Shown here: piece after piece, positions 60 to 54,846 of the stretch | How positions within the stretch are numbered: the first letter of the stretch is position 1 | Layout: the number at the start of each line of letters is the position of its first letter | From: a virus | Strand: one strand, 5' to 3' | Length of the DNA stretch: 64,000 bases | Virus genome (UHGV): UHGV-0382128 | Translations under genes and position numbers: made by a program | The notes under the pieces: model-generated | The model's database searches: none | What the model was told of the DNA's origin: nothing | What the model saw: only the letters and a program-made list of their open reading frames with translations

Positions 60-470
60 TTAAATTTTAAGTTTATCCATAGCTACAACGATAGGTTTTT
101 CCGAAGTGTCTAATATCCCTACCATCGGTACACCATTTTTGATTTCGAAGAACGGTTTGTTATTGCCAGAGCACAAACGTTTGTCGTTGTATTCGAGACG
201 TTGTGCCTTCCACGTTTCGAGGTTGAGTACGGACATAGGGCTGTCGTAGCACCAGGCCCCACCCTGCTCAACGATGAACACGTATCTGCTACCTTTGTAT
301 TTAAACAGGCTCTTCGCCTGACAGTACAGACCGTCAATTTCTGTACAGTAGAAATCGTCGGTACTATTGACGTACTTAATTCCAGCTGGCAATTGTGTTA
401 TTTTTGCTGATACGTTAACAGAGAACAGAATAGCAATTGCAATGAGAAGAGTGTTGATGATAGTTTTCAT
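60..470 (-). CDS. small secreted protein (N-terminal signal peptide), unknown function
   Basis: ORF 136 aa; hydrophobic N-terminus MKTIINTLLIAIAILFSVNVSA; AGGAG RBS upstream of ATG; four Cys. Confidence 0.6.
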   Translation of the reverse strand: MKTIINTLLIAIAILFSVNVSAKITQLPAGIKYVNSTDDFYCTEIDGLYCQAKSLFKYKGSRYVFIVEQGGAWCYDSPMSVLNLETWKAQRLEYNDKRLCSGNNKPFFEIKNGVPMVGILDTSEKPIVVAMDKLKI

Positions 471-480
471 GATAAACTCC

Positions 481-966
481 TTAGTATTTAGATTGTTCTA
501 CGTACTTCTTAACCAGATAACCGAATTCAGCAACGCCGATTTCGCCGAACCAAACCAGATAACCGGGGTCGATGTTGTAGTAATAACCGACGAGTTTCTT
601 GGTGTGTGGGTTGTATAGCGTTACGATATATTCCCAGCCACAAGCGTTAGCTTTACAGCCACCACTTTCAATCCAGATTTTGTTGTTGATATTTACCGGA
701 TACATGTTACCGCCAGGGCCATCCATGTAACCTTTAGAGCCGAACATTCCATCCAGCCCCACCGGATCTAGTGTTTTATCAACAACACCTTTAAATGACT
801 TATCGGTATCGTACAAGTCGTTGATGTTTGGACACGCATTTGGCTGACCTTCCCGAGCGTTCCCATCGCAGGTAAGTAATTCGTCTACGGAGGCCGCATC
901 TACAGTAGGTGTGGCACCGATAAACAAGAAAACCAGAAAGAACATCAGTGTATGTAAACGTTTCAT
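481..966 (-). CDS. small secreted Cys-containing protein, unknown function
   Basis: ORF 161 aa; signal-peptide-like N-terminus MKRLHTLMFFLVFLFIGATPTVDA; AAGGAG RBS 8 nt upstream. Confidence 0.6.
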   Translation of the reverse strand: MKRLHTLMFFLVFLFIGATPTVDAASVDELLTCDGNAREGQPNACPNINDLYDTDKSFKGVVDKTLDPVGLDGMFGSKGYMDGPGGNMYPVNINNKIWIESGGCKANACGWEYIVTLYNPHTKKLVGYYYNIDPGYLVWFGEIGVAEFGYLVKKYVEQSKY

Positions 967-984
967 TGTGACTACTCCTTTAGA

Positions 985-1377
985 TTATTCAGCAGGACGA
1001 TTTAAAGTAACTCGGCCAATTAATTCGGAGTTATGAAAGAAGTCCACAGCGGTATAGTTACCAACTGATAACGGATGTATGCTAACCGACATGACTTTTG
1101 GTTGTTCACAGGCGATATCGGTCAAACGTTGGTAGACTTGTGCACGGGTGTCAGCAATGAGTAATCCTGTACATGTTTCACCACGTACTAAACGATAAAC
1201 TTGCAGTTTACCGAAACTGCGCATTAACGTAGGTGTCTCATCCGGGTTGATAATCGGTGAGTCAGGAGCGGGTTCGTAATGGTTGACATCCGAACCGCCG
1301 AAAGCGTAAGTGCCAGTAATGCCGATTGCACAGAAAACAATGATAGTATAAAGTATAGTTCTAATATTCATTTTCAC
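985..1377 (-). CDS. small secreted protein, unknown function
   Basis: ORF 130 aa; signal-peptide-like N-terminus (ILYTIIVFCAIGITGTYA). Confidence 0.55.
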   Translation of the reverse strand: MKMNIRTILYTIIVFCAIGITGTYAFGGSDVNHYEPAPDSPIINPDETPTLMRSFGKLQVYRLVRGETCTGLLIADTRAQVYQRLTDIACEQPKVMSVSIHPLSVGNYTAVDFFHNSELIGRVTLNRPAE

Positions 1378-1399
1378 GCACTCTAAAAAAGATTAATAC

Positions 1400-1861
1400 T
1401 TATTTGTTAGGACGGGTGTGTCCACAGTTCTGGAAGAAAGTTTCAGATAGACGTTCGCCTTCTACGGTAAAGTTAGCGGCGTCATTACCATTGATACTCA
1501 CGCTGAAATTTTTGGCATTACCGATAGCATTAACGAAAGCAACCCAAGCGAGTTCTGCTTTGTCACTACCATCCACGGTAGGGATGTTATAGGTTTTGCC
1601 GTTTACGACAATATCCATCGTGTTATCTTCAGCGTTAGTTGCACCTACAGGTTCCCCGTAATACCAAACCATGCGACCGTAAAATTTGCGATTCGCGGTT
1701 TCAGTGTCACAGTTGATAGACAGTCCGTTTCCGGTGGTGTCTTCGATTTCGTAAACTGCCTGACCAGGGTTCTGTATTTGTTCCCAGCTGTTGATAGCGG
1801 CGTGTGCAGTATTGAATCCGAAAGTTAAAATGGTTACTAAGAACGCGATAAAAGTTTTCAT
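1400..1861 (-). CDS. small secreted protein, unknown function (start adjusted from track ORF 1400..1954)
   Basis: Internal ATG at 1861 gives MKTFIAFLVTILTFGFNTAHA signal peptide and is preceded by GAAGGAG RBS; upstream extension in the track lacks an RBS. Confidence 0.55.
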   Translation of the reverse strand: MKTFIAFLVTILTFGFNTAHAAINSWEQIQNPGQAVYEIEDTTGNGLSINCDTETANRKFYGRMVWYYGEPVGATNAEDNTMDIVVNGKTYNIPTVDGSDKAELAWVAFVNAIGNAKNFSVSINGNDAANFTVEGERLSETFFQNCGHTRPNK

Positions 1862-1907
1862 TGAAATGCTCCTTCGGGTTATGGGAAAGTTCCCACAAAT
1901 CATGAAA

Positions 1908-2279
1908 TTAAATGAGAAAGTGGGCAACTCTTTTAATCTGTCTATAACTATCATCGATACCTCTTATTATTTCCAGACGTTCTTCTGAAGAAAGGCATTG
2001 GTTAATGTCTTTGTCAAGATTGAACAATGTCATGAGTTTTGCAATCGAAACTGCCAGGTTGTCCGATAGCTCGTTGTTTTTACGCCATTCTTCGTTACGG
2101 AAAATACAGATAAGGTCTTTCACCTGGTTTTCAGCGAGCGGTTTGGCTAACTGTGCGTCGCGCTGTTCGAGAAGGTATGCTTCGTTGGTAAGTAATTGTT
2201 TCAGGTCTTCTGGGTAAAGGGCAGCGCGAGTAACGATCAGTAATACAACAAACGGGTCTTTGAACAATTCGTTTTTCAT
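1908..2279 (-). CDS. hypothetical protein (start adjusted; track ORF 1908..2330 begins at a GTG inside the leader hairpin)
   Basis: ATG at 2279 preceded by TAGGAGAA RBS; the upstream 17 codons overlap the conserved 5' leader hairpin. Confidence 0.55.
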   Translation of the reverse strand: MKNELFKDPFVVLLIVTRAALYPEDLKQLLTNEAYLLEQRDAQLAKPLAENQVKDLICIFRNEEWRKNNELSDNLAVSIAKLMTLFNLDKDINQCLSSEERLEIIRGIDDSYRQIKRVAHFLI

Positions 2280-31490: not shown

Positions 31491-32021
31491 TTAAGCAGTA
31501 AAGCCGTCAAGTTCACCGTCGGTGGTGGCCAGGTCAATACGATTATCAACAACTTTCGGCGTAATTACGAAAGTTGCCATTACACCCGGTTTATAACGGA
31601 GGTTCTTTTCAGTAACGGTACACGTTACCGTACGCAGAGTGACGCTATCGTGTTCGTCTTTCTGGTCTTCGGTGGTGTACTCAACGTCACCAGGTGCGAT
31701 AGAGTCGTCAGGTTTTACTTTATTGATGTAAAACTGTAATCGGTCGCGTAGTTCGTTTTCTCCAGTCCAGAGAGCCAAATCGTCCGTTACCTCAATGCGT
31801 CCGACAACGCCAGGTTCCAGACGATCGTAATGCAGTTCGATTGCGCCTTTAAAATTTTCAGACTCTGTACGTGCGGTCATGGTAACTTTGGTATTTTTAT
31901 CGCCCTTTTCAAGAGCGACAGGTTGACCAAAAGTTACCTCTTTATCAGTGACCTGATGCGGTAGCTCTGTGTTAGCAGCATTATAAAGCGCAACTAACAT
32001 CATCTGGTTAGTAGCTGCCAT
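31491..32021 (-). CDS. small beta-rich protein, member of a 6-copy paralog family (putatively virion or fibre associated)
   Basis: Shares N-terminal pattern and C-terminal GELDGFTA with 32090..32620; weaker similarity to 35297, 35775, 46811 and 53418. Confidence 0.55.
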   Translation of the reverse strand: MAATNQMMLVALYNAANTELPHQVTDKEVTFGQPVALEKGDKNTKVTMTARTESENFKGAIELHYDRLEPGVVGRIEVTDDLALWTGENELRDRLQFYINKVKPDDSIAPGDVEYTTEDQKDEHDSVTLRTVTCTVTEKNLRYKPGVMATFVITPKVVDNRIDLATTDGELDGFTA

Positions 32022-32089: not shown

Positions 32090-32620
32090 TTACTCTTTAG
32101 GCGCTGGTGCGGTGAAGCCATCCAGTTCACCTTCCAAACCGTTCAGTGCTACTTTCTCAATAGCCGGAGGAGTAACTTTATACGTTGCAACAGTACCTGG
32201 CAGGAACTTCAGGTGTCCAGCCACAACAGTTACTACGTAAATGGTTTTGCCTTCTTCTTCACGAGAAATAGTTTGCAGGTCGTTTTCACCGAATTCGTCA
32301 TCGGTGTACCCCTTCTCAACCATGGCTGCGTTAACTTTTGCCAGGATTTTCGTTGGTGAATCGAAATCGGTAGTAGGTGCAGTTACTTCAACTTCACCAA
32401 CGATGTCGCAGGAAAGACGAGTATAGTGGAATTCTTTCTCGCCTTTGAAGTTCTGGCTTTCTGCCTTGGCGGTCAGAGTAATTTTAGTGTTGCGGCCAGC
32501 TTCTCCGGTGAAGTCAGCGACAGCACTAAAGTCAACATCAGCTACGGTGAGAGCGGAGTTCAGAGAGCTGTTTTTAGTGTTAATAAGTTCGATAAGCTGC
32601 TGTTGAAAAGTTTTAGCCAT
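32090..32620 (-). CDS. small beta-rich protein, same paralog family
   Basis: 176 aa; C-terminal GELDGFTAPAPKE; pattern LIELINT...TKITLTAKAESQNFKG...HYTRL. Confidence 0.55.
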   Translation of the reverse strand: MAKTFQQQLIELINTKNSSLNSALTVADVDFSAVADFTGEAGRNTKITLTAKAESQNFKGEKEFHYTRLSCDIVGEVEVTAPTTDFDSPTKILAKVNAAMVEKGYTDDEFGENDLQTISREEEGKTIYVVTVVAGHLKFLPGTVATYKVTPPAIEKVALNGLEGELDGFTAPAPKE

Positions 32621-32752: not shown

Positions 32753-33244
32753 GTGAAAAGTATGATAAAACGTTTTCTTATTGTTATGGTTGGTGTTTTT
32801 TCATTGGCAGGATGTGCCTTACAACCGAATGGTGACGGCCAATTCTCGACTGTGCCGGTGGAGCCACATGATATGGTTATTTACACCTGTATGGGTGCAG
32901 AGCAAGATTTTGCAAATTACAAACCTGTCGTCAGCTCGACTAATATAATGTTAGGGTCAGTAACTGTACTCGATACTGGTGCTAACTGGGTAGCCACTTG
33001 GCCAAATGGTAAGATTGAGTCGCCGCAACTTTATAAAGATTTATTAGGTAAAGTTAATGGGAATATTGATCCTATCACAGGACAACGTTACTATCGTGTA
33101 AATGGTTTACTTTCAAAAACGCCAACGTTTGCGTATTCTACTTTAGAATATAAAACGGGTGATGGTAAAGGCATTACTTTCTTCCACTGTAAAGAAGGTG
33201 TAGCGTCTGACACTGGAACAATGCTCCATCCTGCGGAACAATAA
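32753..33244 (+). CDS. lipoprotein (163 aa)
   Basis: Signal peptide with lipobox LAGC (MKSMIKRFLIVMVGVFSLAGCALQ); isolated plus-strand gene with its own terminator. Confidence 0.6.
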   Translation: MKSMIKRFLIVMVGVFSLAGCALQPNGDGQFSTVPVEPHDMVIYTCMGAEQDFANYKPVVSSTNIMLGSVTVLDTGANWVATWPNGKIESPQLYKDLLGKVNGNIDPITGQRYYRVNGLLSKTPTFAYSTLEYKTGDGKGITFFHCKEGVASDTGTMLHPAEQ

Positions 33245-33250
33245 AAACTA

Positions 33251-33286
33251 CCCTACTCCTTATCGGGAGTAGGGTATATTCATTTT
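33251..33286 (+). terminator. rho-independent terminator
   Basis: CCCTACTCC-TTATCG-GGAGTAGGG hairpin followed by TATATTCATTTT. Confidence 0.6.
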
Positions 33287-33359
33287 AACCGCCAAATCGT
33301 GCGTAAAACGCATTCTGAGCGTCTTTATACAAAATAAGGTATAAACACCTTAGAAATAG

Positions 33360-33875
33360 TTAAATCTCGACTAAGGCGCTCCAATCGATTGGTTTTTGCT
33401 TAACAACTTTCACAGTACCGCGATTTGGTGACCAGAAAGTAATGTTAGGCTGGTTACGAACGTCAATGTGCAACCAACTGATGTCACATTCAATAAAGTG
33501 AATGAACGGAAACTCGTCAGGGTTAGCAGCGATATAGTCGTGAACCTGTTTTACGGTGCTATCCAACAACGTTGCATCAATGGCGTTACCGAATTTGTGT
33601 TGACTTCCTGAATCGGCGTAAAGCTGCAACGCACGTTGTTTATAACTACCACCCTTAGGCTTTTCTTGATTAATAAAGAAATCTAAGGTTCTTAGTCCAC
33701 GTTGTTGTGCGGCAGTTGAGTTAATCACCATTCTACCGAAACGGTTACGAATCTGTTGTAGGGAAATCATTAGCAACGGATTCATAAACCGAATTGCGGA
33801 ATCGCCGTATTTGGCAATATAGGACTGTGGTACTAACTCTCTGAGTTTAAAGTTACTCGGATTTGGATGAAACAT
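33360..33875 (-). CDS. peptidase M15-family-like cell-wall hydrolase (putative lysin)
   Basis: SQHKFGNAIDA (S.H..G.A.D) and WLHIDVR (H.D) motifs typical of the M15 zinc peptidase fold. Confidence 0.5.
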   Translation of the reverse strand: MFHPNPSNFKLRELVPQSYIAKYGDSAIRFMNPLLMISLQQIRNRFGRMVINSTAAQQRGLRTLDFFINQEKPKGGSYKQRALQLYADSGSQHKFGNAIDATLLDSTVKQVHDYIAANPDEFPFIHFIECDISWLHIDVRNQPNITFWSPNRGTVKVVKQKPIDWSALVEI

Positions 33876-34527
33876 CTTCCCTCCCAGACAGAAAAGCCCG
33901 TTTGATGTTCAGGTATTTGACATTAACGGGACAATCTGTGGTGATATCAATACGTTCGTGGTCAGGGATTGCAGGTTCCTTAAACTCGCGAACGAATAAA
34001 TAGTTTCGATTGTAATCTAACGTACGAAACGCGTTAGTGTTGTAGGATGGCTTTGCATTAGGATCTACGTAGGCATCCCAGCCGAAATCAACAACGGCCT
34101 TATAAAATGTTTGGCAGATATAAGGCGAGATTTCCAACGACTGCATAATACGCAGGAAAGTTAAGTCAGAAAACTCTTTATCGATAAAACGCGAAACGTT
34201 ACCACCCGGTGTCATGGGATAGCTACGCTCCGTGTTGCATTTTTGATAGAGTAAGTCGTGAATACAGGCCGCAGGTGCCCACGGTCCGTCAGGATGGAAA
34301 ATTCCCTGGAGGTGATCAGGAATTGACGCTAAATCGGTAACGAACCCTTTCGGTGCTGTTAACCACAGTTGTGTGTCAGGCAATACACCCGTTAAATAAA
34401 CCGCACGGTCTAAGTGTACGTGGTCGTGATAAATCTCGCGTAACGTAAACGGATAATGGTAATCCTCCGTTAATACAAACCACTTATTGTCTAAACGTTT
34501 ATATTGAAGCTTCTCCATTACCCACAC
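33853..34527 (-). CDS. DUF1353-like protein
   Basis: GFVTDLASIP ... AACIHDLLYQ resembles the F.TD..SIP / HD..Y signature recalled for DUF1353. Confidence 0.4.
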   Translation of the reverse strand: MWVMEKLQYKRLDNKWFVLTEDYHYPFTLREIYHDHVHLDRAVYLTGVLPDTQLWLTAPKGFVTDLASIPDHLQGIFHPDGPWAPAACIHDLLYQKCNTERSYPMTPGGNVSRFIDKEFSDLTFLRIMQSLEISPYICQTFYKAVVDFGWDAYVDPNAKPSYNTNAFRTLDYNRNYLFVREFKEPAIPDHERIDITTDCPVNVKYLNIKRAFLSGREDVSSKSE

Positions 34528-34533
34528 CTTCCC

Positions 34534-34638
34534 TTATAGAAACCAGAAAAATTCGTACCCACGCTTTTCGTCTTTACGTTTCCGTCCAGACGTTAACGCT
34601 TTCCACAATAGTGCTAAGAGTTTAGCAAACCAATTCAT
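34534..34638 (-). CDS. possible small ORF (34 aa, MNWFAKLLALLWKALTSGRKRKDEKRGYEFFWFL)
   Basis: Hand-translated; ATG overlaps the GH108 stop (AAATGA); hydrophobic then basic segment; not in the ORF track. Confidence 0.25.
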   Translation of the reverse strand: MNWFAKLLALLWKALTSGRKRKDEKRGYEFFWFL

Positions 34639-35225
34639 TTTACTAACCCCGCCTTCACTACATAATCCGGCATTTCCCTGTACACGCGTCCGTACCAGCC
34701 GTAAGCGAATTTTTCATTCTTCTTACGCTTTTCGGAGATTTCTGTGTAGTAGGTTACCTGGTGTGAGATTAACGCAAAGATTAAGATGCCTAATCCCTCG
34801 CCTTTACGGTAATTCAGATAAGCATTCAGAGCACCTAGTGTTTTAGGTCCCATACCACCGTCGGTGTCAATATCTGCGTAAAGTTTCCCTTCGTTATTTA
34901 AAACGTTGAGAATACGTTGTAATGATTTCACACAGTTAACACGACCAGAGTTAATACCAAAATCAAACATCCTGTCGGCGAGTATCGGCGAGATAGCGAA
35001 AATCTCATCGAGTTTAAGTTTCTTCCACCAACCACGATCGTAAATATCAAACGCTTGCGCACGGGTCAGATCTTTCATTCTTCCTTTGTACCCGTATTCG
35101 CGTGCAGTTGTCAGTGTTACCCCGTGACAGGTTTCCCCACCTTTATCGTCAGGGTCATTGACGTACCCACCCTCTAAATCTGTTTTCGAAGCAATAATGC
35201 CTTCTTTAGTCCAACGTTCGGCCAT
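34635..35225 (-). CDS. GH108-like muramidase with peptidoglycan-binding domain (putative endolysin)
   Basis: EGGYVNDPDDKGGETCHGVT matches the GH108 N-terminal signature; C-terminal GWYGR typical of the associated PG-binding domain; AGGAG RBS. Confidence 0.65.
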   Translation of the reverse strand: MAERWTKEGIIASKTDLEGGYVNDPDDKGGETCHGVTLTTAREYGYKGRMKDLTRAQAFDIYDRGWWKKLKLDEIFAISPILADRMFDFGINSGRVNCVKSLQRILNVLNNEGKLYADIDTDGGMGPKTLGALNAYLNYRKGEGLGILIFALISHQVTYYTEISEKRKKNEKFAYGWYGRVYREMPDYVVKAGLVK

Positions 35226-35246: not shown

Positions 35247-35282
35247 ACAAAAAAAGAAAAGAGGGTGGGATTACCCCACCCT
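35247..35282 (-). terminator. rho-independent terminator
   Basis: GGGTGGGATTACCCCACCC hairpin followed on the minus strand by a T-rich run. Confidence 0.65.
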
Positions 35283-35296
35283 GTAGTTATTTCTTC

Positions 35297-35761
35297 TTAG
35301 CGAGATGGCTTGGCTGGCGCTGCGGCGACAGACGGTTTACGCGCAACACGCACTGTAAAACCACCGACCCAGGTTAGACACTCGGGGCGGAAGAAAATAC
35401 CGTGCTCGATTGCACTGCCGTCTAGCGGTAACGCACCAACCTGCTCTACCCATACATCGTCTTCTGTAAGGGTTAAGCCATACTGCTCGTTAATTACAGG
35501 CAGCAAGTCCGCAGTCGTGGTTGCTGCCTCAACTAACAGTTTCGGCAATACGTTGTGGAAATACAAACCTGCATCAATGCGGTTATACTGGAACGTTTGC
35601 TTATTAACATAACCGAGATTCTTAACCGGCACAACCGTAATTTCGGTGTTGTACGTACCGGTACTTACGACGGGCTCACCCAATGTGACTTTGGCGGTGT
35701 CGAGCTCGGCGTCTGGGTTAGCCTTTTTAATAAGGTCGAAGATAGTTTCTTGACTGGTCAT
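35297..35761 (-). CDS. small beta-rich protein, paralog family member
   Basis: 154 aa; pattern IFDLIKKANP...VTLGEPV...TEITVVP..F.YNRI. Confidence 0.5.
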   Translation of the reverse strand: MTSQETIFDLIKKANPDAELDTAKVTLGEPVVSTGTYNTEITVVPVKNLGYVNKQTFQYNRIDAGLYFHNVLPKLLVEAATTTADLLPVINEQYGLTLTEDDVWVEQVGALPLDGSAIEHGIFFRPECLTWVGGFTVRVARKPSVAAAPAKPSR

Positions 35762-35774
35762 TACTGTAATCCTC

Positions 35775-36623
35775 TTAATCTAAGAATCCAGGTAAGACCG
35801 AATTAGTCTTGGCTAATTCAATCTTCGACTTCGGACGATCGGTTCCGTTAAAGTGAATTAACAGTTTACCGGTCAGGTTAGAACACATACCGCTTAGGGC
35901 GAGTACCAGCACACGCGTGTACTTCGCATTTGCGCCTTCGAAACCTGCGGTAGGGCCATCGTAGATAACCTTAGCACCGAACAAGTTATTAGCAGCGTTC
36001 TTAGGTACGCTTACCCATTTCTCATCAACAACGTTAGTCAGTTTAGTAGCTAACTCTACTAAGTCTACGGTGCCGTTGATGGTAATTGGATCAAGGTAAT
36101 CTTTTTCTGCGGTGAAGTCAATTGGGTAAGAATAAACCGCAGCGTTACCTTTCTTAGTGGACGGATACTCTACCAGGTTTTCTAATTGAGTAACAGGCAG
36201 CAATTTAGCCAGATCAATAGGATCGCGTAGCGTAAGCGTCACTTCGCCACACCACTCGTAAGATTTCTCGTTAGCGGTAAGTTGGTGGGTTTTACCTTCA
36301 ACTTTCGCATCAACGATATCCGATGGCAGAATATTTAAATCGTATTTTGCGTTGATTGCGTTAAGCAAATCTGAGGCGGTTACAACACCGTCGTTACCGA
36401 ATACCAACTCACCTGTTAGGTATTCGGGCAAATTACGACGATGGTAAGTCACCGTTAAAGTAGTAGACTCATCGCCTTTGAGTTTAGAAGTCAGAACCAC
36501 CTGGGTATCAACCCCAGTACCAGTAGGTTCGCCGATATCAACATCACTGAAGGTCAATGGCGGAACAATATTGTTTTCAGTGTTGATGAGTTTTAGCAGT
36601 TTCTGTTTTGACGTAAGAGACAT
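35775..36623 (-). CDS. paralog family member with C-terminal extension (282 aa)
   Basis: N-terminal LLKLINTENN...FSDVDIGEP...LTVTYHRR pattern. Confidence 0.5.
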   Translation of the reverse strand: MSLTSKQKLLKLINTENNIVPPLTFSDVDIGEPTGTGVDTQVVLTSKLKGDESTTLTVTYHRRNLPEYLTGELVFGNDGVVTASDLLNAINAKYDLNILPSDIVDAKVEGKTHQLTANEKSYEWCGEVTLTLRDPIDLAKLLPVTQLENLVEYPSTKKGNAAVYSYPIDFTAEKDYLDPITINGTVDLVELATKLTNVVDEKWVSVPKNAANNLFGAKVIYDGPTAGFEGANAKYTRVLVLALSGMCSNLTGKLLIHFNGTDRPKSKIELAKTNSVLPGFLD

Positions 36624-46810: not shown

Positions 46811-47323
46811 CTACTCTCCAAAAGTTAAGATTTTATTGTCAAACGTCAACACGACAGAATCATCACCGATGCCACACGGTGTTTCATCTGGGCCGAAAAC
46901 CACCACGGAGAACTGTCCTTTATAAGCGATGGAATTCGGAGCGATGCTAAGCGTTACCGCGTCTTTACCTACCGTGAACGACTGGTCGGTTAAATCGTCG
47001 GTTTGTAAGTTAGCACCACAAACGGCATTGACGGATTCGATAAGATCGTGTGCATTAAACCCTTCACCTCTTACTTTTACCAGAATAGGTTGTTGGTTTA
47101 ACCACCGCTCTGCGGTTAAACGGTTGTAGTAGATTTGCAACGTTCTGTTTCCAGGACGTTTAATCTTTACAATGGCAGTGGAGTCACGATCCATTTCATC
47201 ACTGGTTTTTACGTCACTGACTTCAACCTCGTTCTCTTGCAAGTCAAGTTGGAGGTCATGGTTAACCAGTGAAATAACCATGTTAAGTGAAGTTAGTGAT
47301 AAATCTGGTGTGAATTTTTCCAC
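46811..47323 (-). CDS. small beta-rich protein, paralog family member (GTG start)
   Basis: Pattern LSLTSLNMVISLVNHD ... IYYNRL; paralog 53418..53978 sits in the equivalent position upstream of the other fibre. Confidence 0.5.
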   Translation of the reverse strand: MEKFTPDLSLTSLNMVISLVNHDLQLDLQENEVEVSDVKTSDEMDRDSTAIVKIKRPGNRTLQIYYNRLTAERWLNQQPILVKVRGEGFNAHDLIESVNAVCGANLQTDDLTDQSFTVGKDAVTLSIAPNSIAYKGQFSVVVFGPDETPCGIGDDSVVLTFDNKILTFGE

Positions 47324-47421: not shown

Positions 47422-47865
47422 TTAGCTAATTCTCAAATCACGCAGTGCGCCTGTCGATTTCATCACGTTTTGGAACGCGCCACTGATGTTATTAGTCCAG
47501 TAATAATGCTGTCCGTTAATAACCTGCTGATAGGCCAGCGCGCAGGTGTTACCACCTAAATTTACGGTAATGTTAGAGGCTCTGCCTCCTTGTAAGTAAA
47601 CCGCTAAAGTAGGCTTTGCGTTGGCAACTATCGTCGTTAACTGTAACTCAATACCTACTAAAGTTCCCACCCCGCAGTTACCCGCGTTTTGAATGGTTCC
47701 CTGATTTTTCTGGTTTAACGGCCAGCTTGGTCCTACCGCGCCCCATTTCTTACCTAAAGAATCGCTATATGCAGCGGTTGCAATTTTACAGCCCATAGAT
47801 CGTCCCACCATTTGACTCATCATAAAAGGTCTACCCAATCCTAATTTACTACCAGCAGCGCTCAT
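47422..47865 (-). CDS. receptor-binding-like protein, paralog of 48184..48729; true start probably upstream at 47930 but frame broken by a G10 tract
   Basis: Track ORF starts at an internal ATG; an upstream ATG (47930) with AGGAG RBS is followed by 10 G then TAA. With 8 or 11 G the frame reads MGGGVTGSWVGSSAKNETGEQW-MSAAGSKL..., matching the paralog N-terminus MGVASGWVGSSAKAVTGQEW-MSVAGNKL. Confidence 0.55.
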   Translation of the reverse strand: MSAAGSKLGLGRPFMMSQMVGRSMGCKIATAAYSDSLGKKWGAVGPSWPLNQKNQGTIQNAGNCGVGTLVGIELQLTTIVANAKPTLAVYLQGGRASNITVNLGGNTCALAYQQVINGQHYYWTNNISGAFQNVMKSTGALRDLRIS

Positions 47866-47942: not shown

Positions 47943-48173
47943 TTAAGATTTTCTACATGTTATTGAATCGAAAGCACCACGCCCAACCCAACGCCAATTA
48001 TAATGATGATCAGCTTTATAAAGTGTGTATCTGCCCTGCTTTTTTACGTCGAAAATATTGATCGTAGTCTCTTCATTACCCAGCTTAGCTGTGCCGTAAC
48101 ATACAGGTTCGGGTAGTTGTTGACATCCACTTACTGTAAGCAATGCGAAACCCAGTAAAACTTTTCTTAACAT
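47943..48173 (-). CDS. small lipoprotein (76 aa)
   Basis: MLRKVLLGFALLTVSGC lipobox-type signal; located between the two receptor-binding-like paralogs. Confidence 0.5.
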   Translation of the reverse strand: MLRKVLLGFALLTVSGCQQLPEPVCYGTAKLGNEETTINIFDVKKQGRYTLYKADHHYNWRWVGRGAFDSITCRKS

Positions 48174-48183
48174 CTTTCTGTCC

Positions 48184-48729
48184 TTAGACTACACTTATTG
48201 AAATTGTTGCGCCGTTCTGATTAAATAACCAGTTGGTTGCCGTCTTAGCCTCATAGCGCCGGACGCCGTTACTGTAAGAGTACGGTAGAAAAGTAATCTT
48301 CGTTCCGTTAAACGAAAGCGTAATATTCTGATTTGGTCCATTGGTTAGGGCCATGTAGATAATACCAGTATTTTGTACTTGGCTAAGATGTGTGACGCTA
48401 CAACCCAAGATCGAACCTGACACCGAACCGGCCGCATTTTGTGTTTGCACACGATTCGATACTGTAGAACCAGCACCCGTTGTTGTAGAGTTGTTCGAAT
48501 ACCCCCCATACGTATTTGTAATAGGAACCCACTGCGTGTTCGTAGCCTGCACCAAAACAACATAGGTTGATCGGCCTACAACGAGTTTAAGATCCTCTAC
48601 GCTACGCCCGACCATCTGCGACATGTTAAATGGCGTGCTCAGTTTAAGCTTATTACCTGCCACACTCATCCACTCCTGACCGGTTACTGCCTTTGCTGAG
48701 CTTCCAACCCAGCCGGATGCTACCCCCAT
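48184..48729 (-). CDS. receptor-binding-like protein (181 aa), intact paralog
   Basis: N-terminal MGVASGWVGSSAKAVTGQEWMSVAGNKLKLSTPFNMSQMVGRS conserved with 47422..47865; GGAGG RBS; immediately downstream of the 1479-aa fibre gene. Confidence 0.55.
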   Translation of the reverse strand: MGVASGWVGSSAKAVTGQEWMSVAGNKLKLSTPFNMSQMVGRSVEDLKLVVGRSTYVVLVQATNTQWVPITNTYGGYSNNSTTTGAGSTVSNRVQTQNAAGSVSGSILGCSVTHLSQVQNTGIIYMALTNGPNQNITLSFNGTKITFLPYSYSNGVRRYEAKTATNWLFNQNGATISISVV

Positions 48730-53417: not shown

Positions 53418-53978
53418 TCATGTAGCCGGGTTTTCTTCAGCGGAGTCTCCATCTGGAACCTCAAATGTAAGAACAGCATCGTCACCAATACAGAAGATTG
53501 CATCTTCTTCGTTTGCTAATGCCCGTTCAGTTGTATCAAATAACGTCACCATAAACGCATTCATCCACGCAGGAGAATCGTCAGCAACGTTGACAGCAAT
53601 AGGATCGTTACCTAAAGTGATATCTGAAGCACGTAAATCCTCGGGTTGTAAGTTCGTTCCGCAGAATTCATTTACAACACCTAAAATGTCGCGTACGTTG
53701 TCTTCGGTACCATCTAACGAAATCAAAATAGGTTCGGACGCTAACACTTTGTCCGCATCCAAACGGTCGTAATAAACAACTACAGAAGCACCATCAGGTT
53801 TCCTGATTTTTGTAATCTCTGTCAGTGTGTTACGACGCGAAGTGGTCGGGGATGGGTTTGCCGTAGTGTTGCTAATACGGATTTCGCTTAGAGACAACCG
53901 TGAACCGTTATCGTGGTTGATTAAAGCGACCACTAGTTCGGCTGAGGACAAACTTAAATCAGGTACGTAAGCAGTCAC
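53418..53978 (-). CDS. small beta-rich protein, paralog family member (GTG start at 53978 with GGGAGG RBS)
   Basis: MTAYVPDLSLSSAELVVALINHDNG parallels MEKFTPDLSLTSLNMVISLVNHDLQ of 46811..47323. Confidence 0.5.
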   Translation of the reverse strand: MTAYVPDLSLSSAELVVALINHDNGSRLSLSEIRISNTTANPSPTTSRRNTLTEITKIRKPDGASVVVYYDRLDADKVLASEPILISLDGTEDNVRDILGVVNEFCGTNLQPEDLRASDITLGNDPIAVNVADDSPAWMNAFMVTLFDTTERALANEEDAIFCIGDDAVLTFEVPDGDSAEENPAT

Positions 53979-53992
53979 TAAAACCTCCCAGA

Positions 53993-54040
53993 TCAAAAAA
54001 AATAAAAACACCTACCGCCCCATAGAATCGGGCGGTAGGC
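53993..54040 (-). terminator. rho-independent terminator
   Basis: CCTACCGCCC-loop-GGGCGGTAGG 10-bp stem followed by T-rich run on the minus strand. Confidence 0.65.
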
Positions 54041-54065: not shown

Positions 54066-54476
54066 TCAGACCGTTAGTTCTCCACATAACTCAACGTCGA
54101 TACCGAACGTCATTCCCACTTCTTGAAGTTTGTTCGCCAGTAGGTGACGATGACAAAACTTACCTGCGGGACAATAGCACATCAAAACCAAATCTTCGTG
54201 TCTAAGCAACGAGACCAACGTTTCGGCATCGGCATCTAACAGTCGTTCGAGTTTGTACAAATACTTTATCGTGTATTCACGCTCAGCGGCAGCGTCTTGG
54301 GCAGAATTTTTATACGCCATTAGGAAATCCCAGTCGGGGGCGAGTTCCTTTCGCCCTGACTTCACAGTGATATCCACTGCGTGAAATCCTTTCTGCTTAG
54401 CTAATCGCCACTTAGCGAGTTGTAGCGTCCAGATTCGCATTAGGAACGAGTCTGCGATTCGGCCATCAGTGCACAA
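54066..54476 (-). CDS. hypothetical protein with C-terminal Cys/His motif (DUF4326-like)
   Basis: LVLMCYCPAGKFCHRHLLANKL resembles the C.C....CH signature recalled for DUF4326; start uncertain. Confidence 0.35.
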   Translation of the reverse strand: MCTDGRIADSFLMRIWTLQLAKWRLAKQKGFHAVDITVKSGRKELAPDWDFLMAYKNSAQDAAAEREYTIKYLYKLERLLDADAETLVSLLRHEDLVLMCYCPAGKFCHRHLLANKLQEVGMTFGIDVELCGELTV

Positions 54477-54637
54477 CTTTTTACAGCCTGTGCATGAAGC
54501 TCTGTACCTGGTGTGTAATCCTTTATACAGTCCTGATACAGTTCGCGCTTTGTTTCTAAAACACGATTATCGTACTCAGCACTTGCTAGTGCTCCTGCGA
54601 TAAGGATAAAAACTAGAATCGGTAACCAAATTTTCAT
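54440..54637 (-). CDS. small membrane or secreted protein
   Basis: MKIWLPILVFILIAGALASA hydrophobic N-terminus; paralogous to 54634..54846 (ELY.DC ... C motif). Confidence 0.45.
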   Translation of the reverse strand: MKIWLPILVFILIAGALASAEYDNRVLETKRELYQDCIKDYTPGTELHAQAVKSCALMAESQTRS

Positions 54638-54846
54638 CCTCCACCTCTCATTCGTTTAGCGTAATCCGTACACGCCATTACCAATTCAGCGTAGCGTGGA
54701 TTATCTACCGTAGTACCTGCCATACATTCACGATAAAGAGATTCTTTACGTGATTCGTCGGAAGTCTTAACGTAGAACATCAACATTGTTACAATCAGCG
54801 CAGTTGAAACAATTGCCGAGATGATATATCCGTCATTTATTTTCAT
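54634..54846 (-). CDS. small membrane protein, paralog of 54440..54637
   Basis: Transmembrane-like IISAIVSTALIVTMLMFYV; ATGA overlap with downstream gene. Confidence 0.45.
   Translation of the reverse strand: MKINDGYIISAIVSTALIVTMLMFYVKTSDESRKESLYRECMAGTTVDNPRYAELVMACTDYAKRMRGGG

Follow-up and report, generated by a model that had tools for sequence, protein, structure and literature searches.

How does a jumbo phage of Gram-negative bacteria use two peptidoglycan hydrolases, a DUF1353 protein and a very small cationic peptide that are encoded side by side, and would this set open every layer of the host envelope? The question is raised by positions 32,753 to 35,225 of the virus genome UHGV-0382128, which was analysed as a stretch of 64,000 nucleotides (the window). 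Lysis of Gram-negative hosts is thought to need a holin, an endolysin and an outer-membrane disruptor, the last role falling to a spanin or, in rare cases, to a disruptin. In about 15% of phages no spanin can be recognised (bioRxiv 10.1101/515445). The original prediction for this region was a lysis-type module composed of a GH108-like muramidase, an M15-like peptidase, a DUF1353-like protein, a small open reading frame (ORF) and a lipoprotein, with no canonical holin. Here, the minus-strand genes of the region are interpreted as an envelope-degrading lysis operon, a reading whose chances, for the block as a whole, we judge to be even. The enzyme families are already known and the block is already present in published genomes, where it is largely unannotated or misannotated. 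What appears to be new is a phage operon coupling a TtsA-type muramidase, a TtaP-type phospholipase A2 (PLA2), a cationic mini-protein and a LAS peptidase, together with the recurrence of the putative PLA2 family in holin–endolysin cassettes.

A compact four-gene operon bounded by hairpins

The window belongs to an uncultured SPN3US-like jumbo phage. Its proteins are 62–78% identical to those of Salmonella phage SPN3US and of related Erwinia, Escherichia and Proteus jumbo phages. A near-identity DNA search among 50,697 phage records found no close relative, the sole match being 408 bp at 76% identity, and for this reason the relatives were reached through proteins. SPN3US has the same gene order: SPN3US_0156 (GH108), 0157 (DUF1353), 0158 (M15-like) and 0159 (lipoprotein, on the opposite strand). 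Every ORF of the original prediction, both in the 32753–35225 block and at 54440–54846, was found where it had been placed. The unit comprises the following features:

34635..35225, minus strand: N-acetylmuramidase of the TtsA/SagA family with GH108 and PG_binding_3 domains, 196 residues (Pfam, PHROG and PDB matches)
34534..34638, minus strand: 'NWF' peptide of 34 residues, MNWFAKLLALLWKALTSGRKRKDEKRGYEFFWFL, cationic with a net charge of +5; its start codon (ATG) and the GH108 TGA overlap (conserved homologues)
33853..34518, minus strand: predicted PLA2 of the DUF1353/TtaP family, 221 residues, no signal peptide (PF07087, catalytic residues, PDB profile matches)
33360..33875, minus strand: predicted LAS-fold, M15-type zinc peptidoglycan peptidase, 171 residues (family profile links, metal-site residues, fold comparison)
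35262..35282, minus strand: terminator-like hairpin at the 5' boundary, located between the GH108 start and the DUF7941 head-protein gene upstream of it; G+C-rich stem of 8–9 bp, then CUUUUCUUUU
33249..33276, both strands: bidirectional terminator-like hairpin at the 3' boundary (12-bp stem), separating the M15-like gene from the convergent lipoprotein gene

The GH108 stop and the start of the 34-residue ORF overlap by 4 nucleotides (ATGA), and the DUF1353 and M15-like genes by 23. The upstream hairpin, located by a pattern scan and then folded, has a minimum free energy of −15.5 kcal/mol (z −3.46; 0/200 shuffles fold as well). On the minus strand the downstream hairpin folds at −20.9 kcal/mol (z −4.5), on the plus strand at −20.4 kcal/mol (z −5.6), and for both, again, 0/200 shuffles fold as well. 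The best reading of the minus-strand genes from 35225 to 33360 is one compact late operon of four genes, bounded by hairpins, in which start and stop codons overlap or nearly touch.

The probable endolysin is a TtsA-type muramidase

In hidden Markov model searches, both the GH108-like and the DUF1353-like assignments of the original prediction were borne out above the Pfam cut-offs. The GH108 domain (PF05838) scores 82.3 bits against a gathering cut-off of 21.2, and the C-terminal PG_binding_3 domain (PF09374) 59 bits against 24.6. The best PHROG is phrog_315 (endolysin, 7.9e-43), and the solved muramidases TtsA (6v40, 2.1e-44), Sen1395 (6v3z, 1.1e-43) and Brucella SagA (7dnp, 4.2e-12) are all matched, the alignment to 6v40 spanning both domains. 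The N-terminal EGGY motif, to which we take the catalytic Glu of GH108 to belong, is present, with DLEGGYVNDPDDKGGET aligned to SREGGYVDHPDDRGGPT of 6v40. The NCBIfam model NF040573, a holin-associated N-acetylmuramidase equivalog, gives 70.6 bits, under its cut-off of 240, which indicates a related protein and not an equivalog. From these family matches, the protein is the probable endolysin. Neither a signal peptide nor a transmembrane (TM) segment, the latter defined by a Kyte-Doolittle value of 1.6 over 19 residues, was flagged in the muramidase, the DUF1353 protein or the M15-like enzyme.

Joint inheritance of the block with its muramidase was considered and rejected. The closest GH108 proteins are those of Certrevirus (65% identity), yet they have neither a small ORF nor a DUF1353 gene beside them; therefore, the block was not inherited with the muramidase.

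DUF1353 proteins resemble secreted phospholipases A2

The match to the DUF1353 domain (PF07087) reaches 53.6 bits (cut-off 22.5). The likely start is the ATG at 34518 (alternative GTG at 34527), preferred because relatives begin with MEKL or MEAL. The family includes TtaP, a 125-residue protein with experimentally shown PLA2 activity, which is encoded alongside TtsA in the five-gene typhoid-toxin islet of Salmonella Typhi and is distantly related to the group XIV secreted PLA2s, with a His70/Asp85 dyad plus Asp71 (Gartly et al. 2024, PMC11525133). In an alignment of 24 DUF1353 proteins, ranging from those of jumbo phages to the 120-residue forms of small phages, the sole invariant columns are the PKGFVTD motif, P67, H87, D88 and D118 (window numbering). 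The catalytic residues H87, D88 and D118 are intact in the window protein and match H70, D71 and D85 of TtaP. The spacing from His to Asp is 15 in short forms (such as that of locus L038), as in TtaP, and 31 in the window protein because of a 16-residue insertion between the two residues. The window protein is a long form, which also has N- and C-terminal extensions.

When the DUF1353 profile was compared with all PDB sequences, the top four matches were all secreted PLA2s (8k1w, 0.0017; 1faz/1lwb, 0.04; 7ygk, 0.05; 4aup, 0.092), and the HD, D and C-terminal Y..V..FG motifs line up in the alignments. The ranking appears unambiguous, although the E-values are individually weak, and it independently reproduces the published HHpred link. 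TtaP was not among the 114 DUF1353 homologues returned, and its link to the window protein rests on the Pfam family and the catalytic residues. On this basis the window protein is assigned to the TtaP family of phospholipases A2, and its putative activity is extrapolated from that of TtaP.

The M15-like protein is a predicted LAS-fold peptidase

The last gene of the operon encodes a protein that has no Pfam M15 match even at E ≤ 1 and nothing relevant among PDB sequences by phmmer or profile search; fold comparison alone was productive, and places it in the LAS (Hedgehog/DD-peptidase) fold. Its homologues are more telling, since 19 of the 24 aligned match PF08291 (Peptidase_M15_3; best 6.8e-8) and 13 match PF13539. 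The family conserves R61, H92, G95, D99, E128, W133, H135 and D137, of which R61, H92, D99, E128, H135 and D137 are invariant. H92, D99, H135 and D137 fit the pattern of zinc ligands, H-x(n)-D ... H, with the catalytic Asp after the second His, and the predicted metal site is thus intact. The M15-like call of the original prediction was thus right at the level of family and fold.

Homologues of this protein were also observed in phages of other kinds. One, in phiVC8 (L088, 2986–3459), lies between the major head and tail tubular genes of ~40-kb Vibrio podophages, and another, in KVP40 (L089, 2486–2971), lies beside PhoH in KVP40-type myophages. As it occurs in both, the family moves between very different phage types and contexts.

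A conserved cationic peptide is coupled to the muramidase gene

The 34-residue ORF has homologues, each with an ATGA or GTGA overlap on the GH108 stop, in SPN3US (unannotated), Asesino (gp172), pEa_SNUABM_29 (unannotated) and several IMG/VR contigs, including those of loci L011–L013. Its conservation extends over three genera. Among five members of the window clade, nine of the 14 variable nucleotides of the ORF fall at third codon positions; for at least nine of 14 variable sites at one codon position, binomial arithmetic gives p ~0.02. Eight of the variable codons are synonymous-only and three non-synonymous. The same third-position pattern is found in the flanking genes and is reversed in the off-frames. 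Judged by its conservation and variation, the ORF is a real gene under purifying selection, translationally coupled to GH108.

The NWF peptides carry a charge of +5 to +8 and consist of a hydrophobic N-terminal helix followed by a basic cluster. The helix, 17–18 residues long, includes two Lys/Arg residues and is not flagged as a TM segment. No Pfam, PHROG or NCBIfam family is matched, hence no described holin family. The peptide is a candidate membrane-active lysis accessory protein, which may be holin-like or disruptin-like. The original prediction had also named the small ORF as a candidate holin, and it is a real, conserved gene in the position expected of a lysis accessory.

Other lineages fill the same slot between GH108 and DUF1353 with different small ORFs. 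In loci L014–L016 it holds peptides of 39–52 residues that end in a TM segment, and in L017–L019 peptides of 33–37 residues with a C-terminal hydrophobic segment. Since the occupants differ, the conserved feature is, as far as these comparisons go, the position of a small, putatively membrane-active gene beside the endolysin, more than any one sequence.

A 288-bp 'intergenic' gap between genes 0156 and 0157 of SPN3US (L001, 8034–8324; 136033–136323 of record NC_027402.1) contains three conserved, unannotated small ORFs, which encode the NWF peptide, a ...DSGFFKLLRAIFCRRV peptide in another frame and a 30-residue TM peptide, MQYDNDDWPKGLMPILLGLMVLTMLVRYMT. In L014–L016, the DSGFFKLLRAIFCRRV-type and TM peptides appear fused into one ORF of 39–52 residues.

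DUF1353 recurs beside lysis genes

Seventeen jumbo-phage loci, in which DUF1353 is the constant element, were compared. The order GH108, small ORF or ORFs, DUF1353 is kept in 13 of the 17, and DUF1353 is followed by the M15-like gene in four lineages (the window clade, SPN3US, the CR5 type and L148). Asesino-type loci lack the M15 gene, and those of the CR5 type have no GH108 near DUF1353. Beyond the jumbo phages, two lineages of Fusobacterium phages encode, in this order, an endolysin (Amidase_3 or Peptidase_M15_4), an ORF of ~100 residues, DUF1353 and Phage_holin_4_1. The cultured phages phiRTG5 and FNU_1P, as annotated by their depositors, have the same order from endolysin to holin. In L079 DUF1353 adjoins an M15 endolysin, and in L064 a GH24 lysozyme. 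The association of DUF1353 with lysis genes is recurrent, not universal, as other phage loci and bacterial chromosomes show unrelated neighbours. The Salmonella toxin islet was missed by an exact-pattern scan of bacterial genomes for GH108 beside DUF1353, and the genes found around DUF1353 in the chromosomes were unrelated.

This variation bears on the simplest alternative, in which the genes form no functional unit and are neighbours by descent, DUF1353 serves as a tail assembly chaperone and no peptide is made from the small ORF. Gene content around DUF1353 does differ by lineage, as just described for the Asesino-type and CR5-type loci, and the names 'tail assembly chaperone' or 'tail assembly-like protein' are carried by phrog_1158, NC_027402.1 gp109, NC_021531.1 CR5_150 and many other records. 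However, the chaperone name traces solely to the 'tail assembly-like' label and finds no support in our results or in the SPN3US, CR5 and Fusobacterium records, whereas the family has a member with PLA2 activity shown by experiment, conserved catalytic residues and PLA2s as its top PDB matches. Moreover, the overlapping stop and start codons, the flanking hairpins and the third-position bias of the small ORF favour co-expression and translation. We consider this alternative very improbable.

Close homologues of the lipoprotein and of DUF1353 (P0034, P0035 and P0053) were found in assemblies of Salmonella enterica isolates (Agona, Enteritidis), on contigs of 226–242 kb. Jumbo phages of the window clade thus appear to travel with cultured Salmonella isolates, and Salmonella is a likely host.

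Lysis at the end of infection or digestion at entry

In a lysis operon, the proteins would act in succession. The peptide would damage the inner membrane and so open the periplasm to the three enzymes, which have no signal of their own; single-TM peptides of 33–52 residues would serve in its place in sister lineages. Glycan strands would be the target of the muramidase, and peptide stems or cross-links that of the M15 peptidase. Group XIV PLA2 enzymes require Ca2+. The PLA2 would presumably be idle in the low-Ca2+ cytoplasm and become active after release, hydrolysing phospholipids of the inner leaflet of the outer membrane and of the inner membrane. Perhaps with help from the peptide, it would weaken the outer membrane and do the job of a spanin or disruptin. 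The ttsA–ttaP pair of the toxin islet could then be a domesticated remnant of such a phage pair.

Part of the original prediction of a lysis-type module holds up well in this light, namely the enzymes, the small ORF and a DUF1353 PLA2 family that recurs in holin–endolysin cassettes; the detection of two of the SPN3US counterparts in virions, the convergent lipoprotein gene, which is probably outside the unit, and the lack of any tie between lysis and the proteins at 54440–54846 (see below) speak against the remainder. No spanin-like pair, that is, a lipoprotein and a type II inner-membrane protein, was seen in the 64-kb window, and neither a holin nor a spanin is mentioned in two papers describing genomes of SPN3US-like phages. 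TtsA-dependent toxin release needs an added perturbation of the outer membrane, which the authors suggest TtaP may supply (PMC11525133).

Several points weigh against a lysis function. Deletion of ttaP in S. Typhi gave no envelope or secretion phenotype (PMC11525133). The distant relative phiKZ uses a canonical holin–spanin cassette (PMC12894885), and a canonical holin or spanin may lie elsewhere, the inspected 64 kb being part of a genome of ~221 kb. DUF1353 has unrelated neighbours in bacterial chromosomes and several phage loci. The peptide helix bears two basic residues and is marginally amphipathic in the window clade (hydrophobic moment 0.39, shuffle fraction 0.08); the values for its SPN3US- and Asesino-type homologues are 0.43–0.50 and ~0.01. 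The phiVC8 homologue of the M15-like gene sits among structural genes, and the four-gene block itself is inserted within a cluster of head-protein paralogues:

31491–32021, 32090–32620, 35297–35761, 35775–36623, 46811–47323 and 53418–54011, minus strand: at least six DUF7941/phrog_1037-2935-4862 paralogues (Pfam, PHROG)

These correspond to the head 'paralog family B' of SPN3US, in which the counterpart of 32090–32620, gp160, is present in >300 copies per capsid. The remaining counter-evidence comes from SPN3US particles themselves. The DUF1353 protein gp157, a head protein of low abundance (9 spectra, 25% coverage), was detected both in purified virions and in tailless heads, and the M15-like gp158 in tailed virions (2–3 spectra) and not in tailless particles, while gp156 (GH108) and gp159 (lipoprotein) are missing from the virion lists (PMC5105663, PMC5694885). 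Proteins known not to belong to the virion, among them the terminase and the DNA polymerase, went undetected in the same preparations.

These data would fit an entry module, in which the DUF1353 PLA2 and the M15 peptidase are minor virion parts that are ejected and digest lipid and cross-links locally, only GH108, with or without the peptide, takes part in lysis, and the adjacency of the genes reflects shared late expression. The embedding of the block among head genes and the phiVC8 arrangement agree with it, as does the retention of the DUF1353 and M15 pair without an adjacent GH108 in CR5-type phages. Against this, the spectral counts are very low (9 and 2–3), and membrane-binding late proteins could co-purify with particles. 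Fusobacterium DUF1353 sits between endolysin and holin, away from structural genes; the coupling of DUF1353 to the non-virion GH108 and a small peptide is kept in 13 of the 17 jumbo-phage loci; and TtaP acts inside the producing cell and is not secreted (PMC11525133). We judge an entry module to be less likely than lysis, yet its serious competitor. Part of the block may nevertheless act at entry, because gp157 and gp158 were found in particles and gp156 was not listed. Together with the placement of the block among head paralogues, these particle data are the chief argument for a role at entry and against lysis alone. The spectral counts are low, however, and the Fusobacterium cassettes point toward lysis.

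The lysis reading can be extended to a broader proposal, which we make tentatively: DUF1353 PLA2s could be an unrecognised class of phage lysis proteins that replace spanins in SPN3US-like and Fusobacterium phages. Silent in the cytoplasm, they would enter the Ca2+-rich periplasm once a small membrane peptide or a holin had opened the inner membrane. The ttsA–ttaP pair would be a domesticated copy of this core of two enzymes, and TtaP would then provide the outer-membrane perturbation on which release of typhoid toxin depends.

The lipoprotein and other membrane proteins of the window

Downstream of the operon, on the opposite strand, lies the lipoprotein gene that the original prediction had included in the module:

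32762..33244, plus strand: outer-membrane-type lipoprotein, 160 residues from the ATG (alternative GTG at 32753), with an LAGC lipobox, two conserved Cys and a predicted 8-stranded β-barrel

The ATG at 32762 is preferred as the start because the homologues begin with MLKRF. The lipobox is canonical, and its Cys is invariant in the family, along with two other conserved Cys. This orphan family comprises 12 clusters and is present in 55 phage records, all of them enterobacterial jumbo phages. The gene had been called divergent; it is convergent with the M15-like gene, with which it shares the hairpin at 33249–33276, and divergent only from the DUF7941 gene at 32090–32620.

The lipoprotein could belong to the module as an analogue of an outer-membrane spanin (o-spanin), or as an MliC/PliC/PhiA-like inhibitor that restrains GH108 or blocks the lysin of a superinfecting phage. 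Its lipobox, predicted barrel and two conserved Cys are compatible with such roles, and it occurs in each of the 13 jumbo-phage loci with GH108 beside DUF1353 and is missing from all CR5-type loci. A [ST]G-x-R-[YF]-Y motif (residues T108–Y113 of the alignment), at a predicted β-hairpin loop, bears a loose likeness, without sequence-family support, to the SGxxY of MliC and PliC. However, the barrel matches are generic, with Cap15, BFA1 and OmpW scoring alike, and the protein has no sequence similarity to any PDB chain or Pfam family, MliC included even at E ≤ 10; PhiA, for its part, has no SGxxY motif and gave no inhibition of SagA in vitro. As for an o-spanin, the protein is too large and globular, and has no adjacent inner-membrane partner (i-spanin) and no C-terminal TM segment. 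In Goslar, the lipoprotein follows tail-fibre and tail-fibre-assembly genes, with no GH108 annotated within 5 kb on either side, and in L148 it is found together with DUF1353 and M15, the short stretch examined upstream showing no GH108. We rejected the inhibitor and spanin assignments as working models, given the generic fold match, the lack of sequence or Pfam support and the different context in Goslar, and retain membership in the module as an improbable alternative. The lipoprotein is probably a separate neighbour gene outside the lysis unit, since it is convergent with the block and stands, in Goslar, after tail-fibre genes without a nearby GH108. A position after tail-fibre genes is typical for superinfection-exclusion lipoproteins, and the protein may possibly serve that function.

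Two further small membrane proteins had been put forward as holin candidates:

54440–54637 and 54634–54846, minus strand: two overlapping paralogues of 65 and 70 residues, both with a single TM segment at the N-terminus and a short C-terminal part in which two Cys are conserved

Both ORFs are real and have one TM segment each, but they lie 20 kb away and nothing ties them to lysis. No PHROG family matches them, nor does any DNA of the phage collection. As holins they were set aside, with no evidence either way beyond the single TM segments.

Other membrane-associated genes were observed in the window. A 76-residue lipoprotein (47943–48173, minus strand) matches the Cor superinfection-exclusion family (phrog_1119, 1.3e-25) and lies between two paralogous tail-fibre adhesin genes of phrog_1121 (48184–48729 and 47422–47865, minus strand), a T1/phi80-style Cor/adhesin arrangement that is unexpected in a jumbo phage. 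At 60–1954 (minus strand), four consecutive small genes encode proteins of 136, 161, 130 and 184 residues, each with an N-terminal hydrophobic segment resembling a signal peptide, which suggests a cluster of secreted or periplasmic phage proteins.

Comparison with known lytic systems

A lipid-hydrolysing enzyme is a standard member of the mycobacteriophage LysA/LysB cassette, in which LysB follows the endolysin and detaches or weakens the outer lipid layer. This enzyme, a cutinase-like esterase on the mycolyl-arabinogalactan linkage, is unrelated in fold and substrate to the group XIV-like PLA2s. In the literature searched, no proposal of a phospholipase as a component of a phage lysis cassette was found; if the lysis reading is true, such an enzyme would provide a third, enzymatic route to outer-membrane disruption. 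The muramidase, PLA2 and peptidase sets, with the 34-residue cationic peptide, are also candidate antibacterial parts.

The cassette of phiKZ (gp141/gp141.1/gp142/gp143/gp144; Manohar et al. 2026, PMC12894885) likewise groups jumbo-phage lysis genes around an endolysin. As defined by experiment, it comprises a transglycosylase endolysin, overlapping i-spanin and o-spanin genes, a class IIIb holin with a cytoplasmic domain of ~75–80 residues and a cytoplasmic regulator, none of which was seen in the window block. That block has a GH108 endolysin, a 34-residue peptide, a PLA2 and an M15 peptidase. The phiKZ holin has a single TM segment in an N-in topology, and the same topology is suggested for the 33–52-residue slot peptides of L014–L019.

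A small cationic helical peptide in the lysis cassette of a spanin-less phage is known from phiKT, the gp28 disruptin (bioRxiv 10.1101/515445). With 34 residues, a charge of +5 and coupling to an endolysin, the NWF peptide falls within the disruptin screen of that study (<80 residues, charge of at least +4). The two peptides differ: gp28 has 56 residues, is hydrophilic, carries a charge of +7 and has as its only homologue a near-identical protein of the close relative PGT2, while in the NWF peptide the N-terminal helix is hydrophobic and the C-terminal half basic.

The Fusobacterium cassettes (phiRTG5, FNU_1P and uncultured relatives) resemble the block in that the host is a diderm and DUF1353 lies next to small ORFs and a peptidoglycan hydrolase. 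They differ in having a short DUF1353 form of ~150 residues, an Amidase_3 or M15_4 endolysin and the canonical Phage_holin_4_1, and their DUF1353 is annotated under that name or as a tail assembly chaperone, never as a lysis gene. In many jumbo phages, the same family is routinely mislabelled as a tail assembly chaperone.

A close parallel is the TtsA/TtaP islet of S. Typhi, where the same two families are encoded together and neither protein is exported by a signal, as in the window. The window genes form a phage operon and not a toxin-secretion islet, they add the coupled cationic peptide and the M15 peptidase, and their PLA2 is the 221-residue long form, with extensions and a 16-residue insertion, as opposed to the 125 residues of TtaP. 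TtaP is a conserved PLA2 beside a muramidase that is unable to release toxin without outer-membrane damage, and an origin of the pair in phage lysis would give it a testable function.

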